Assembly: GCA_023267655.1 (NCBI GenBank)
Contig: JAHFMV010000001.1
Coordinates: 31,954-95,953, forward strand
Length of the DNA stretch: 64,000 nucleotides
Reading direction: 5' to 3'
Origin: Candidatus Kaiserbacteria bacterium
GTDB taxonomy: Bacteria > Patescibacteriota > Minisyncoccia > Phycocordibacterales > UBA2100
The position numbers were made by a program, and so were the translations under genes. How positions within the stretch are numbered: position 1 is the first letter of the stretch; each line of letters starts with the position of its first letter. A model generated the notes under the pieces. That model searched no databases and was not told where the DNA came from. It saw nothing but the letters and a program-made list of their open reading frames with translations. Shown here one piece after another: positions 38,403-41,893 of the stretch.

Positions 38403-38426
38403 TAGCCACTAGGGTTTAGCCACTAG
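38403..38426 (-). promoter_or_regulatory. tandem CTAGTGGCTA motif in the rnj 5' UTR (shared with groES and groEL)
   Basis: In gene sense: ccctagtggctaaaccctagtggctaa, 12 nt upstream of the rnj ATG. Confidence 0.45.
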
Positions 38427-38517
38427 GGAAATACGATTTAATAATGCGATTAATAATTTTTTCTAATAATTTTGTAACAATTGAATTTTCTAGAAGCTAG
38501 AAGCTTGTCGCTAGAAG

Positions 38518-40362
38518 CTATTTTGAAAATATATTCCACACACGCTCAGTGTCGCGGTACCACCGGTACACGTCATTGAAACGATCCGACGGGACGGTCA
38601 GTGTCCCGATGTCCACGCCGTGGATTCGGGAAGGAACGATGTAGGCAAGTTGTGGTGAGTAGAGAAACACGGCAGGCCTATCCGAGTCAATAGCTGCGAG
38701 AAATTGCTGGAAATATGCTTCGCGCTGTTTCGGATCGGTTTCTGCGCGCGCGAGGGCAAGTTCTTTGTCTGCTGCCGTTGAAGTGTAGAGCGCCAAATTC
38801 AATCCCGGATCGTTGCGTTGTGATGAATGCCAGAAGGCAAACAAGTCGAGCGAACGACCGACGACTTCGCCAAAGAGAATCGCATCGTACGCACGCGGTC
38901 GCAAGATCGTCGTGTTAAATTCTGACAGAGGATACACCTGCACGCTTGTCTGTATACCGATCGCATTCCACGCGTCCGCGACTGCGTGCGCGGTTGCAAC
39001 CAATTCTTCTGTATCCGGCGTTGCGAGCGCGAGCGAGAGTTCTTGTTTGTCTTTTTTCCACACACCATCGGGGGCCTGTCCCGTGGAACCCGTCTGTTCA
39101 ACTGGGGTCGTACTCGACGTTGCCGTGAATTTCCATCCGCCATTTATGAGTGCTTGCTTTGCGGCTTCCGGATCGGCCGCAGCTACACTCGATGACGCTT
39201 CGCCGGAGAAAAGTCCGGGCGGGATCGGACCACCCAGCGCATCGCCGTAGCCGCCGAGCACCTGGTTGATGATCGTATTTTTATCAACCGCGAGTGTGAG
39301 AGCTTTTCGAACCGCGGCATTCGCGAGAACCGGCGCATGGTTTTGGTTTAAGAAAACGCCAAACGTGCGCGCGAGCGAAATTTTCTTCAAATCCGCGCTC
39401 TCTTGCAAGCCGCGCGAAAGGTTTTTCGGCGACGACGCGACCAAACTTTCGATATCGCCGTTTTCATATGCGGCGACAAGGTCGTCGTCATTGGCGTACG
39501 TGCGATACGTTATTTTGGAAATATTCGGCTCGCCGAGCGCAAATTTGGCAAACGACGCGAGTTTGTATTCGTTCGGCGCACCGGTCGCATCGAGGCTTAC
39601 GCTGGTCGCACGATACGGACCGCTCCCGACAGGATGTGTGTTCAAAGAACTAAATGCGAATTCGTCGGCAGATACGTTTTCCCACAGCGCCTTCGGCAGG
39701 ATGCCGAGCGTTGCGTTCTCGCGAAATGGCGCATAGGCGTGGGGAAGTGTAAAGACGACCGTGCGCGCATCCGGTGCTGATGCCGAGACACCTTCCCAAT
39801 CGGCACGGCGCGGACTTTTCGTGTCAGGGTTTTGCGCGAGATCGACGGTAAAGAGAACATCAGCGGAGGTAAGCGGCGTCCCGTCGTGGAAGGTGAGGTT
39901 TGGCCGCAAATGGAACGTGTACACGGTGCCATCGGCCGAAATATCCATGCTCTCGGCAATATCCGGCGTATAGACGCCATCATTTCCTGCGCGCAGAAGT
40001 CCCGAGTACACAAGTGCGGTCAAATCTTCGTCAGTTTGCGAGGCGGCGAGAAGCGGATTGATGAAGCGGGGCGTGCCCACGGCGCCTTCGGTGAGAGAGC
40101 CGCCACGAGTCGGTACTTCGGTCGAGACTGCTTGGTTCACGTTTGCGAGCAAGATAAATGCGCTGATCGCGAGCGCGATGGAACAGACATACAAAAAGAG
40201 GCGCTCGGACGGCGAGAAGGTGCGAAGCAACACGTCGAGACCTTTCAGCGGCCGGCGCCACGATGATTGTGCGCGTATCGTAAGTGGTTCGCTCTCCAAA
40301 GGGATGCGACCGGCCTCACGGTTTTTTATAGCTTCAAGTGAAAGCTGTATTTCTGGTTCCAT
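38518..40362 (-). CDS. ABC transporter substrate-binding protein, family 5 (oligopeptide/nickel OppA/DppA-like), membrane-anchored
   Basis: 614 aa; N-terminal TM then SBP_bac_5 blocks (…GGSLTEGAVGTPRFINPLLA…YSGLL…, …FNDVYRW…). Confidence 0.75.
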   Translation of the reverse strand: MEPEIQLSLEAIKNREAGRIPLESEPLTIRAQSSWRRPLKGLDVLLRTFSPSERLFLYVCSIALAISAFILLANVNQAVSTEVPTRGGSLTEGAVGTPRFINPLLAASQTDEDLTALVYSGLLRAGNDGVYTPDIAESMDISADGTVYTFHLRPNLTFHDGTPLTSADVLFTVDLAQNPDTKSPRRADWEGVSASAPDARTVVFTLPHAYAPFRENATLGILPKALWENVSADEFAFSSLNTHPVGSGPYRATSVSLDATGAPNEYKLASFAKFALGEPNISKITYRTYANDDDLVAAYENGDIESLVASSPKNLSRGLQESADLKKISLARTFGVFLNQNHAPVLANAAVRKALTLAVDKNTIINQVLGGYGDALGGPIPPGLFSGEASSSVAAADPEAAKQALINGGWKFTATSSTTPVEQTGSTGQAPDGVWKKDKQELSLALATPDTEELVATAHAVADAWNAIGIQTSVQVYPLSEFNTTILRPRAYDAILFGEVVGRSLDLFAFWHSSQRNDPGLNLALYTSTAADKELALARAETDPKQREAYFQQFLAAIDSDRPAVFLYSPQLAYIVPSRIHGVDIGTLTVPSDRFNDVYRWYRDTERVWNIFSK

Positions 40363-40570
40363 GCCCGGTTAGTACAATTTCGAATAATTCCTGCGGCGGC
40401 AAAATGCTCGGCAGGTTCGAAGGTCTAATAATGTTGCAGATATTTTCTTTACGTCGTTTTTCATCATAATGAGCGATTCGAAATTGTCCTACCGGGTATG
40501 CAAACGAAATGAAAGTGCGGAAGATTTTTCCGCAACAAGCGAGTAGCCCTAATAACGGAGGCCTGCTTGA

Positions 40571-40801
40571 TTAACTAATGAGTAAGTGAATGAGTGCCGA
40601 CAAGGCAAAGAGGACAGCGATAACAATGGTAGCGCGGAAAAGGGTCTTTTCCAACCCCCTACGTGTGTGGAAACCGGAGCTGAAGTTGTCAGCCCCAAAG
40701 GCGCCTCCCAAGGACGCTCCAGTTCGCTGCAATAGCACGCAAACCATGAGGAGTACCGAGAGGACGATCTGCACATATGGCAGTACCGTCGCGAGTTCCA
40801 T
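40571..40801 (-). CDS. secG: preprotein translocase subunit SecG
   Basis: MELATVLPYVQIVLSVLLMVCVLLQ…G..GGAFG…FRATIVIAVLFALSALIHLL. Confidence 0.8.
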   Translation of the reverse strand: MELATVLPYVQIVLSVLLMVCVLLQRTGASLGGAFGADNFSSGFHTRRGLEKTLFRATIVIAVLFALSALIHLLIS

Positions 40802-41370
40802 GGGGAAGATAGTATCAAATTGTAGATTGGTGGTCAAGGATGGCGCTCGCGGCACTGCGGCGCATGCCTCTCTCGGGTCGCTATCTGCGCGTGCTCGCGC
40901 AGCGCTCGGGCTCGGCCTCGTCAGGCCTGCGCAGACCCTCGCGAAGCACGACGCCGCACTGCCGTCTCGCTTCTTCCGATTTCGTAGTAGTAAAGTTGAA
41001 GCCGGCCTCGCGCTTCGCGCTCGGCCGGCTCCCGCGTCCTATGGGCCATCATATTTAATGACATCTTACGTAGAGTCTGTCAAGAGTGCACAACTGCTTT
41101 GACTTCACTTCGGGGCAGGAGTACCGTATCTGCTACTCGGATATGGTGCCGAGCATGTTCTGGAGGGTTCATGCACAAGCATAAACAGAGGCGAGCGCGT
41201 AGGACGTTTATGGCATGGTATCGGGCTAATCAGCGGAGGCGCCGTCCACGAGCGCGGGTGCACATAGAAACGGCTCCGGTTTTCACGTTGTTCTGGCGTA
41301 AGTTGGTTCAGCTTTTTAGGGTCGAAAGACCGCGTCGGCGAATGGCCTAGCGCAAAGAGGCGAGAAGATT

Positions 41371-41400
41371 GGCGGCGTCCACGAGGCGCCGCTGTTTTTT
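41371..41400 (+). terminator. rho-independent terminator (+ strand) with no annotated upstream + gene
   Basis: ggcggcgtccacgaggcgccgc followed by tgtttttt. Confidence 0.5.
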
Positions 41401-41401
41401 G

Positions 41402-41430
41402 TTGACACCGGGGTAAATTTCGTAAATAAT
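41402..41430 (+). promoter_or_regulatory. sigma70-like promoter for groES-groEL
   Basis: TTGACA-N17-TAAATA(AT). Confidence 0.45.
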
Positions 41431-41452
41431 ACCCGCGATTTATAAGTATCTG

Positions 41453-41483
41453 CTAGTGGCTAAACCCTAGTGGCTAGTGGCTA
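41453..41483 (+). promoter_or_regulatory. three CTAGTGGCTA units in the groES 5' UTR
   Basis: ctagtggctaaaccctagtggctagtggcta, ending 5 nt before the groES ATG. Confidence 0.45.
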
Positions 41484-41488
41484 TTTTT

Positions 41489-41863
41489 ATGGCAAAAAAC
41501 AAGAAGAAAGCAAAAAAGTCGAAGAAACCAGTCAAGAAAACTATCCGCAAAGTGGTCGCACAATTTGGCATTCAGCCGGTCGGCGACAAGGTGCTCGTGA
41601 GACCGCAAGAGGTGGAACAGAAAACTCCTTCTGGCCTTATCATCCCGGACACCGTTAAAAAGGACAAAATGATGACGGGCGTTGTCGTTGCCGTCGGCAC
41701 CGGCCGCGTGAGCGAAACAGGCGCACGCATTCCACTTTCTGTTTCTGAAGGCGACGTGATTTATTTCAGCCGCGGATGGGACGAGGAGGGCAGCAAATTT
41801 CCGTGGAAAGGCGAAGACTATTATCTCGTGTCGGAAAGCGACATCAAAGCAGTTATTAATTGA
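41489..41863 (+). CDS. groES: co-chaperonin GroES with a ~25-aa lysine-rich N-terminal extension
   Basis: MAKNKKKAKKSKKPVKKTIRKVVAQF-GIQPVGDKVLVRP… (the canonical GroES begins at I-x-P-L-G-D-R-V-L-V); ends GEDYYLVSESDIKAVIN. Confidence 0.85.
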   Translation: MAKNKKKAKKSKKPVKKTIRKVVAQFGIQPVGDKVLVRPQEVEQKTPSGLIIPDTVKKDKMMTGVVVAVGTGRVSETGARIPLSVSEGDVIYFSRGWDEEGSKFPWKGEDYYLVSESDIKAVIN

Positions 41864-41869
41864 ATTTCC

Positions 41870-41893
41870 CTAGTGGCTATTGGCTAGTGGCTA
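41870..41893 (+). promoter_or_regulatory. two CTAGTGGCTA units in the groES-groEL intergenic region
   Basis: ccctagtggctattggctagtggctaaaaa, 16 nt upstream of the groEL ATG. Confidence 0.45.

Follow-up and report, generated by a model that had tools for sequence, protein, structure and literature searches.

Heptad arrays at the rnj–groES–groEL locus

The window analysed here, a 64,000-nucleotide (64-kb) stretch of contig JAHFMV010000001.1 of a Candidatus Kaiserbacteria bacterium, carries the gene of RNase J, rnj, which closes a secG–SBP–rnj block (SBP standing for a solute-binding protein), and, divergent from that block, the chaperonin genes groES and groEL. Each of the three genes is preceded by a short array of heptanucleotides composed of five CTA triplets in strict 7-nt phase, (CTANNNN)4CTA, and a fourth, opposed array lies at the end of the SBP gene. 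The locus comprises the following features:

36435–38390, minus strand: rnj, RNase J, 651 aa (Pfam RNase_J_b_CASP, RNase_J_C and Lactamase_B)
38396–38426, minus strand: rnj leader array with five phased CTA, the last of them 5 nt from the rnj ATG (38390)
38427–38435, minus strand: inner flank cgtatttcc, directly 5' of the rnj array
38436–38489, minus strand: AT-rich spacer between the two opposed arrays near rnj
38490–38520, plus strand: opposed array CTAGAAG CTAGAAG CTTGTCG CTAGAAG CTA
38518–40362, minus strand: SBP_bac_5 solute-binding protein gene upstream of rnj (Pfam; the secG–SBP–rnj block is syntenic in relatives)
41370–41394, plus strand: terminator-like hairpin and T run closing the upstream unit
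41402–41430, plus strand: sigma70-like promoter of groES, TTGACA-N17-AATAAT, kept in relatives with and without the array
41453–41483, plus strand: groES leader array with five phased CTA, the last of them 5 nt from the ATG (41489)
41489–41863, plus strand: groES, Cpn10, 124 aa (Pfam)
41870–41900, plus strand: groEL leader array, preceded by aatttcc and ending 8 nt before the ATG (41909)
41909–43567, plus strand: groEL, Cpn60, 552 aa (Pfam)

Written in register, the groES leader reads CTAGTGG CTAAACC CTAGTGG CTAGTGG CTA ttttt ATG, the rnj leader CTAGTGG CTAAACC CTAGTGG CTAATAC CTA ccctt ATG, and the groEL leader CTAGTGG CTATTGG CTAGTGG CTAAAAA CTA tattctgt ATG. A preliminary description of the locus had reported two or three copies of a 10-mer, CTAGTGGCTA, upstream of the three genes. 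The copies are all there, seven of them exact and one, CTATTGGCTA, with a single mismatch, confined to 38403–38426 (minus strand), 41453–41483 and 41870–41893 (both plus strand) and every one oriented in the sense of the gene downstream, as is the 24-mer CTAGTGGCTAAACCCTAGTGGCTA, identical before rnj and groES; the true unit, however, is the heptad and not the 10-mer, Tandem Repeats Finder giving a period of 7, or of 14 for the alternating form. With up to one mismatch allowed, CTAGTGGCTA has nine matches in the window against 1.03 expected, the ninth, at 32575, being unrelated. The phased triplet itself is still more sharply localised: CTAN4CTAN4CTA occurs nine times against 0.04 expected, always within the three leader arrays, which also hold 12 of the 16 CTAN4CTA pairs of the 64 kb, and no other gene of the window has even two phased CTA upstream.

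Read on the other strand, the last CTA of the opposed array (an "after-stop" arm) serves the SBP_bac_5 gene as its TAG stop. Together with the rnj array, the opposed array makes up a divergent pair whose members are separated by 63 nt of AT-rich DNA. The four arrays are grouped within 3.5 kb, with the identical 24-mer copies 3 kb apart, and account for 10 of the 25 CTAG sites of the window, in which this tetranucleotide is under-represented (about 46 sites expected).

The groES array corresponds to about +16 to +46 of the predicted transcript; as already stated in the preliminary description, it lies in the transcribed leader, because the sigma70-like promoter is situated upstream of it. The groEL array fills the 45-nt groES–groEL intercistronic spacer, which is devoid of a promoter. 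In the spacer at 38436–38489 only weak sigma70-like hexamers, possibly the rnj promoter, are discernible by eye, and the promoter scan reported no strong minus-strand promoter there. The array itself was also considered as a promoter and rejected, since at groES the sigma70-like promoter sits upstream and neither the -10 nor the sigma54 consensus resembles the heptads by inspection; the geometry of promoters of leaderless mRNAs was likewise a poor fit by inspection.

Public annotations are at odds on the start of rnj, giving proteins of 589 aa (NCBI) or 651 aa (ENA). The longer form, whose start is the one abutted by the array, is backed by ATGAACATGTTTACACC, kept in locus L003, and by the similar lengths of the protein in relatives (629–644 aa). 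At its N terminus GroES is extended by a Lys-rich stretch of about 27 aa (MAKNKKKAKKSKKPVKKTIRKVV, window 41489–41570) ahead of the Cpn10 domain, and this extension is present also in the close relative L005.

A stable RNA structure of the leaders was rejected, since the folds of the three window arrays are not significantly better than those of shuffled sequences (z = -0.47, -1.46 and +1.03). The groES and groEL arrays have no inverted partner in the window, and the two arrays of the rnj region do not pair with each other according to RNAfold.

Conservation and distribution of the arrays

The GroES relatives come from groundwater metagenomes, with one distant homologue (45% identity) annotated as "Parcubacteria group bacterium", and the nearest named genome with the same 24-mer among the matches listed is a Candidatus Kaiserbacteria metagenome-assembled genome. 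The groES promoter is kept in every relative of the locus. The comparison of groES leaders covered the window and loci L005, L282 and L003, which have the array, and L283, L159, L160 and L161, which do not, while the close GroES relatives P0003, P0004 and P0007 stand outside it. The arrays are CTAGTGG CTAATCG CTAGTGG CTAGTCG CTTTTTA in L005 (89% GroES identity), CTAGCAC CTAGAAC CTGACAC CTATAAC CTAGTCA in L282 (81%), and CTAGCAT CTGGAAC CTGTAGC CTAGAAC CAAACTA in L003 (68%). Over the four leaders C1 is conserved in 20/20 heptads, T2 in 19/20 and A3 in 16/20, with a G at position 4 in just 12/20; between the window and L282 14 of 15 CTA positions are identical as against 4 of 20 N4 positions (Fisher p=2e-5). 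By this comparison the CTA triplet and its 7-nt phase are constrained, and the four spacer bases, diverged to chance identity, are not. A fixed CTA with free N4 fits the read-out of triplets at a set spacing and argues against a hairpin or pairing with rRNA.

Arrays of this kind are widespread. Scanning of species-representative genomes for CTAN4CTAGTGGCTAN4CT gave at least 120 loci, and 19 of the matches listed belong to Patescibacteria (the candidate phyla radiation, CPR), namely to Paceibacterota, Kaiser-, Adler-, Levy- and Uhrbacteria and Saccharibacteria; at the Patescibacteria loci listed, phased CTA arrays lie 3–13 nt before the starts of rplR, adk, pyrG, dnaK, rplJ, rplL, gyrA, exonuclease genes and others. 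JGI metagenomes scanned with the 20-base pattern CTAAACCCTAGTGGCTAN4CTA also yielded at least 120 loci, against a rough chance estimate of about one, and the statistics given below refer to 112 non-redundant arrays among the matches listed there. Only 3 of the 112 lie inside genes. The modal size is five heptads (66 of 111), with which all three window arrays agree. Of 139 non-core heptads, 33 have G at position 4, which in sense arrays is often T (CTAT).

The arrays are oriented and spaced with respect to start codons. A start on the same strand lies within 15 nt of the 3' side of the array in 30 of the 112 cases, as against 9 antisense ones (p=0.001). In solo arrays the last CTA most often lies 5 nt from the ATG, and in 52 of 82 cases (63%; p=1.5e-15 against a uniform distribution) the gap is 4–7 nt. 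This is the spacing of a Shine-Dalgarno (SD) sequence, for which the criterion is 5–9 nt upstream of the start. SD sequences as such leave no signal in these organisms: SD-like 4-mers stand before 15% of the genes of the window, where control positions within genes give 7%, and before 14% of those at array-bearing loci, the control positions together giving 7–12%, and neither set shows a purine peak upstream of the starts. The 16S rRNA of the array-bearing locus L268 ends in GGATTATTTACATTT (region 4766–4830), without the CCUCC anti-SD. Loss of CCUCC has been described in Wolfe-, Campbell-, Yanofsky- and Peregrinibacteria and SR1, with SD use of 2–7% in representative genomes of these groups except Yanofskybacteria (PMC10783764). 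Pairing of the array with 16S rRNA as an alternative SD was considered and rejected, the longest complementarity to the 16S of L268, the only one available from an array-bearing organism, being 6 nt, below shuffled controls; moreover, relative to GATCACC in the canonical 16S tail, CTAGTGG is a mirror image and not a complement.

Intercistronic arrays are common, e.g. in the spacer upstream of rplR (L18) and in the secY–adk spacer of L131. For most of the solo leader arrays examined the preceding 80 nt are coding sequence of the previous gene, and no promoter was found at a consistent distance upstream of solo arrays.

Among the metagenome matches listed, at least 78 open reading frames (ORFs) downstream of arrays match 92 Pfam families: L14 (3), S7, L7/L12, RF-1/PCRF, SSB and Cpn60 (2 each), and further gyrase A, CTP synthase, FtsH (one ORF), two aminoacyl-tRNA synthetases, an EF-Tu-type GTPase, topoisomerase I, pyrophosphatase and the ribosome recycling factor. 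The genes downstream span housekeeping functions broadly, with many translation genes among them, and do not make up a stress regulon. This bears directly on the proposal of the preliminary description that the CTAGTGGCTA repeats are a heat-shock or stress operator of the CtsR type, replacing CIRCE/HrcA and co-regulating RNase J with GroESL. In its favour speak the restriction of the window arrays to rnj, groES and groEL, the occurrence of arrays elsewhere in CPR before dnaK (L140), cpn60 (two ORFs) and ftsH (one ORF), and the lack of CIRCE before groESL, which was rightly noted: TTAGCACTC-N9-GAGTGCTAA has no match with up to three mismatches in the whole window. The CtsR box RGTCAAA-NAN-RGTCAAA has two matches there at three mismatches, against 4.5 expected, neither of them near rnj or groESL. 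The idea nevertheless fails because of gene repertoire, conservation and intra-operon placement. The families are mainly non-stress housekeeping ones, joined by a 16S rRNA gene, so the array occurs irrespective of gene function; relatives with 50–62% GroES identity keep the promoter and lack the array in their groES, groEL and rnj leaders; another chaperone-sized gene downstream (43633–46218) has none; and the groEL copy sits in an intercistronic spacer with no promoter to control. A stress operator is thus highly improbable, and a specific co-regulation of rnj with the chaperonin falls with it, the same arrays preceding many unrelated housekeeping genes. The case cautions against inferring regulons from upstream repeats shared within one window.

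A candidate leader module and competing explanations

What did survive of the preliminary description is its hedged alternative, a cis-acting RNA element at the ribosome-binding site, which agrees with the sense bias, the SD-like spacing and the lack of an SD signal and is kept as the leading hypothesis. The explanation we tentatively prefer is that the array is an RNA-level leader module, read in 7-nt phase at the SD position by a single-strand-binding factor or by the ribosome. The window arrays would be solo copies of a modular leader element widespread in CPR, made of about five CUA in strict 7-nt phase, (CUANNNN)4CUA, placed in the 5' leader or intercistronic spacer and ending 4–7 nt before the start. 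A putative factor reading single-stranded RNA in 7-nt steps would bind the phased CUA where an SD would sit; it might be an RNA-binding protein, oligomeric or with several domains, or else the 30S subunit by way of one of its ribosomal proteins. In the absence of SD pairing its binding, whether enhancing or repressing, would determine how translation of abundant housekeeping mRNAs begins and perhaps also how stable their 5' ends are or how these are processed. rnj, groES and groEL would then carry the array as abundant housekeeping genes. RNA-level action is ranked first because of the sense bias, the SD-like distance to ATG and the presence of arrays before internal cistrons in organisms without SD; the fixed triplet, 7-nt phase, free spacer and number of about five units point to a read-out stepping seven positions rather than to base pairing.

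To our knowledge, start-codon choice in CPR lacking the anti-SD, above all inside operons, is unexplained, and CPR make up a large share of bacterial diversity. A more far-reaching form of the proposal, which we regard as possible and put forward with greater reserve, is that the phased (CUANNNN)5 is an undescribed SD-independent signal of CPR for translation initiation or mRNA maturation, at which the factor would recruit or position ribosomes, or define a processed, near-leaderless 5' end, at first and internal cistrons alike; if true, it would answer how starts are chosen inside the operons of anti-SD-less bacteria. Pentatricopeptide repeat (PPR) proteins define mRNA ends in chloroplasts, and by analogy one may speculate that a protein bound to the array blocks RNase J and so defines mRNA ends, which would also explain the rnj copy.

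Several observations weigh against the leader-module reading. The gene starts in relatives were set by simple ORF rules. The array is evolutionarily labile at orthologous sites, being missing from the groES, groEL and rnj leaders of L283 (62% GroES identity) and of L159, L160 and L161 (about 50%), where the promoter is still there. The heptads, furthermore, clearly have a second, structural use. An inverted partner, (TAGN4) of at least three units within 600 nt, is found on the 5' side of 49 of the 112 arrays as against 6 on the 3' side (p=2e-9), and 36 of the 112 adjoin or overlap the stop codon of a gene on the other strand, as does the CTAGAAG array of the window. Copies also adjoin genes for stable RNAs and occur in other phyla, and the core of the heptad is palindromic; these points are taken up with the alternatives they support.

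The inverted pairs have the layout 5'-(TAGN4)n-hairpin-(N4CTA)n-3', so that the TAG-reading strand faces the central hairpin (49 versus 6). Their spacers are mostly 5–75 nt long. Between the two arrays of many pairs there is a GC hairpin with GGAATACAAA and TTTGTATTTCC on its two sides, the folding energies being -45 to -79 kcal/mol; this GGAATACAAA–hairpin–TTTGTATTTCC module resembles an intrinsic terminator that works in both directions and has extended arms. As inverted pairs, the heptads of the leader module also build extended arms round the terminator-like hairpins found where genes end. The TAG stop of the gene itself is often provided by an after-stop array (offset -3), and in relatives such arms have UAG in all heptads, with (UAGNNNN)n directly upstream of terminator-like hairpins. 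The (G)TATTTCC flank of the hairpin pairs stands also before solo arrays, including those of rnj and groEL in the window, and it, or TTTCC, precedes arrays at other CPR loci (consensus T-4 T-3 C-2 C/A-1). In seven listed metagenome arrays the partner lies 343–372 nt away (a spacer of about 350 nt), e.g. in L131 (3424–3728), where the spacer contains a terminator hairpin and another long inverted repeat and may encode a small RNA or be a nested element.

In L003, L160 and L131 a second dialect of heptads, TTTCGGA, is laid out in the same way, after stops and before starts, but contains no stop codons. Its inverted arms (TTTCGGA, TTTCGTG and CTTCGAA) lie in L003 at 1990–2130, in the groES–groEL spacer of L160 at about 10420–10500, and in the adk–map spacer of L131 at 4360–4635, one arm just past the upstream stop codon and the other 6–10 nt before the next ATG.

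From this structural side the arrays may be seen as an intergenic repeat family of the REP, REPIN or MITE (miniature inverted-repeat transposable element) kind, the primary form of which is the inverted pair extending terminator hairpins, whereas leader copies are tolerated solo half-elements, spread or locally copied, with a generic structural or insulating effect at most. The very high copy number across CPR, the frequency of 5' partners and the stable hairpin modules they enclose, the TTTCC inner flank shared by solo arrays, the variable presence at orthologous sites, the identical 24-mers and the clustering of the four window arrays, the shared architecture of the TTTCGGA dialect, and the long (CTAGTGG)n microsatellites of other phyla and viral contigs are all consistent with it. 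It hardly explains why solo arrays keep five phased CTA while N4 decays, which is hard to reconcile with dead half-elements in compact genomes, nor the sharp peak of ATG distance with its sense bias, nor the narrow unit number (4–5), unlike that of microsatellites. Start-proximal arrays are solo in 25 of the 35 listed, paired ones standing mainly at gene ends, and therefore are not simply hairpin arms. No transposase or RAYT was noticed among the neighbouring genes, though no systematic search was made. On balance we consider a repeat family of this type rather unlikely. The microsatellites themselves, homogeneous and 8–17 units long, occur in viral contigs (IMG/VR; L006 3940–4010, L036 1–75), Planctomycetes, Verrucomicrobia and Proteobacteria; L043, L089 and L113 are among the loci with long tracts. 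CPR are thought to be competent, and a DNA-uptake sequence was also considered and set aside, since uptake sequences are single fixed words found inside genes as well, not phased triplets whose spacers vary freely.

A palindromic CTAG core in about five units at strict 7-bp spacing would suit an oligomerising DNA-binding protein, e.g. of the ribbon-helix-helix class, equally well. Such a protein would coat the heptads and, where highly expressed units begin or end, work as a roadblock, an insulator or a repressor of global scope. CTAG-core arrays read as CTA heptads on both strands, some of them lying between divergent starts (L124, L087); the inverted pairs flank short AT-rich spacers able to hold promoters, as at rnj; and CTAG is depleted elsewhere in the window. 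A gap of 8 nt separates the array of L268 from the 5' end of the 16S rRNA gene, in L271 an array adjoins a tRNA gene, and tRNA-adjacent arrays are present in L059 and L103 as well; translation is irrelevant to these genes, so a purely translational role cannot be the whole story. At 3150–3225 of L268 there are about 60 nt of CTAG heptads ahead of the 16S gene, which is followed by no 23S gene.

Nor is the heptad-array phenomenon limited to CPR. The genome scan revealed arrays of 4–6 (GCTAGNN) units in Acidobacteriaceae, Chitinophagales, Steroidobacteraceae and others, a few of them, in SD-using phyla, upstream of tRNA, L16, L19 and EF-G genes and 20–40 nt from the start. The loci L059, L103, L127, L139 and L148 (Acidobacteriaceae, Gallionellales) have (GCTAGNN) arrays before tRNA genes, rplP, rplS and fusA, some with inverted partners. 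For comparable pairs of five heptads in Geobacter, binding sites of a global regulator have been proposed (PMC2700814). An operator of this kind is nonetheless at odds with the orientation of solo arrays (30 sense versus 9 antisense) and with their sharp distance of 4–7 nt to the ATG rather than to a promoter, many arrays lie inside operons with no promoter nearby, and it is CTA that is conserved and not the palindrome, G occupying position 4 in only 12/20 orthologous and 33/139 non-core heptads. We therefore judge DNA-level action to be unlikely, and place it on a par with the repeat family; both stay alive because of the palindromic core, the inverted pairs and the copies beside rRNA and tRNA genes.

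The invariant triplet is the complement of TAG, and since 7 is not divisible by 3, a run of at least three phased TAG or TAA closes all three reading frames, always on the strand reading TAGNNNN. The arrays might therefore act as a multi-frame stop barrier, halting stray ribosomes before hairpins and starts under promiscuous, SD-independent initiation and possibly favouring re-initiation at the ATG. This would account for the period of 7, the minimum of three units, the orientation of the TAG-reading strand towards the central hairpin and the provision of TAG stops by after-stop arrays, that of the window included. In the sense direction, too, the rnj and groES arrays close the three frames, whereas that of groEL leaves one open. 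UAG is present in 2/5, 3/5 and 2/5 of the heptads of the rnj, groES and groEL arrays, respectively. The frequent T at position 4 shows that sense-strand stops are not kept; C1, needless for a sense stop, is the most conserved base (20/20); arrays of the TTTCGGA type share the architecture with no stop codons; arrays also precede rRNA and tRNA genes; and periods of 4, 5 or 8 would work equally, yet are not seen. We thus regard a stop barrier as very unlikely.

In practical terms, the array gives the question of start-codon choice a concrete, mutable sequence at the SD position in several CPR groups and may furnish a portable expression part for the few culturable CPR organisms. Even if its mechanism should prove DNA-level or structural, it would serve as a marker of gene boundaries and true starts in CPR annotation.

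Further features of the window are recorded here for completeness. At 11431–11447 a direct repeat with a period of 11, GCCTAG-N5-GCCTAG (CTAGGC when read on the strand of the gene), stands 14–30 nt upstream of the start of a giant ORF of 1959 aa (5538–11417, minus strand) and is followed by aatttcc. Another giant ORF, of 5021 aa (48597–63662, plus strand), has comparable counterparts after groEL-proximal genes in relatives (3895–3926 aa in L001 and L159). A toxin–antitoxin cluster (RelB/YafQ, ParE, DUF433/DUF5615) is located just downstream of the chaperonin region (46274–46835 in the window, 14786–16941 in L001), and the direct repeat TGTAGTGACAA (1.9 copies, 46225–46245) may be its operator. 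Two alike unannotated stretches at 19600–19733 and 22985–23200 (…ctttttgtcttcggactc…tggct.ta.atcgtc…) look like paralogous ORFs of small membrane proteins.

Relation to known systems

Rfam 15 gives no gathering-score match in the window, with only two chance-level hits (E about 9) elsewhere in 38300–42000, and a full-text literature search with the array sequence and with CPR leader and SD motifs returned nothing relevant, only tRNA-fragment and primer matches. The array thus appears to be an undescribed, widespread gene-boundary and leader module of CPR.

Among RNA sites, comparable ones are those of TRAP, a ring-shaped RNA-binding protein controlling translation or termination, which in the trpE, trpG, trpP and ycbK leaders of Bacillus consist of 9–11 (G/U)AG triplets separated by 2–3 nt (period 5–6). 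The array has in common with them phased triplets with free spacers, in the 5' leaders of several unlinked genes and at the ribosome-binding region, and differs in having about five CUA at period 7 and in serving a broad housekeeping set rather than one pathway. The HutP antiterminator site of the Bacillus hut operon, (UAG-N4)3 next to a terminator hairpin, has the same 7-nt triplet period with four free bases, and the after-stop arms of the CPR pairs read (UAGNNNN)n upstream of terminator-like hairpins. Sense leader arrays, by contrast, keep CUA and read UAG only if position 4 is G, and HutP controls a single operon. The SD sequence shares with the array the position just before the start codon, whereas the array is periodic, not a single purine block, and has no 16S complementarity in L268.

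Among DNA sites, the contiguous 7-bp heptads WATCACW of the ribbon-helix-helix protein omega of pSM19035 and the tandem 8-bp met boxes of MetJ, each unit bound by one dimer and several units being required, are comparable as arrays of several contiguous units, the 7-bp ones being direct or inverted; the heptad, however, is CTANNNN and not WATCACW, and operators overlap promoters, while the array lies downstream of a promoter or inside an operon. With the CtsR and CIRCE operators it shares the location upstream of groESL, dnaK or clp genes, and the CtsR box is also a direct heptad repeat, but with a period of 10 instead of 7 and the heptad RGTCAAA, whereas the array is not limited to stress genes.

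REP, BIME and REPIN elements and uptake-sequence pairs are abundant intergenic repeats whose inverted pairs form hairpins at gene ends, REPINs depending on RAYT. The array is likewise short, abundant, intergenic, lineage-specific in its presence and, for 49 of the 112 arrays in relatives, set in inverted pairs, and unlike these elements it is phased in heptads and stands in sense 4–7 nt before starts. Cyanobacterial STRR sequences are tandem heptamers in non-coding DNA, forming long homogeneous tracts; the array is similarly confined to non-coding DNA, but has five units, a fixed triplet with a variable spacer, and other heptamers.

A likeness in arrangement exists also to the multicopy families of Geobacter metallireducens, composed of four or five tandem heptanucleotides, mostly intergenic and some in opposite-strand pairs with variable spacing, the function of which is unknown and for which their authors proposed sites of a global regulator or regulatory RNA (PMC2700814). 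The CPR arrays are also multicopy, of 4–5 units, mostly intergenic and often in opposite-strand pairs, but the Geobacter heptads are MTYCTGA and GGACCGG, the phylum is different, and the authors reported no connection with start codons or with loss of SD (PMC2700814). Because the heptads differ in sequence, the likeness is an analogy of organisation, not homology. The array is best filed as akin both to phased-triplet leader sites and to tandem-heptanucleotide families, and as a member of neither.

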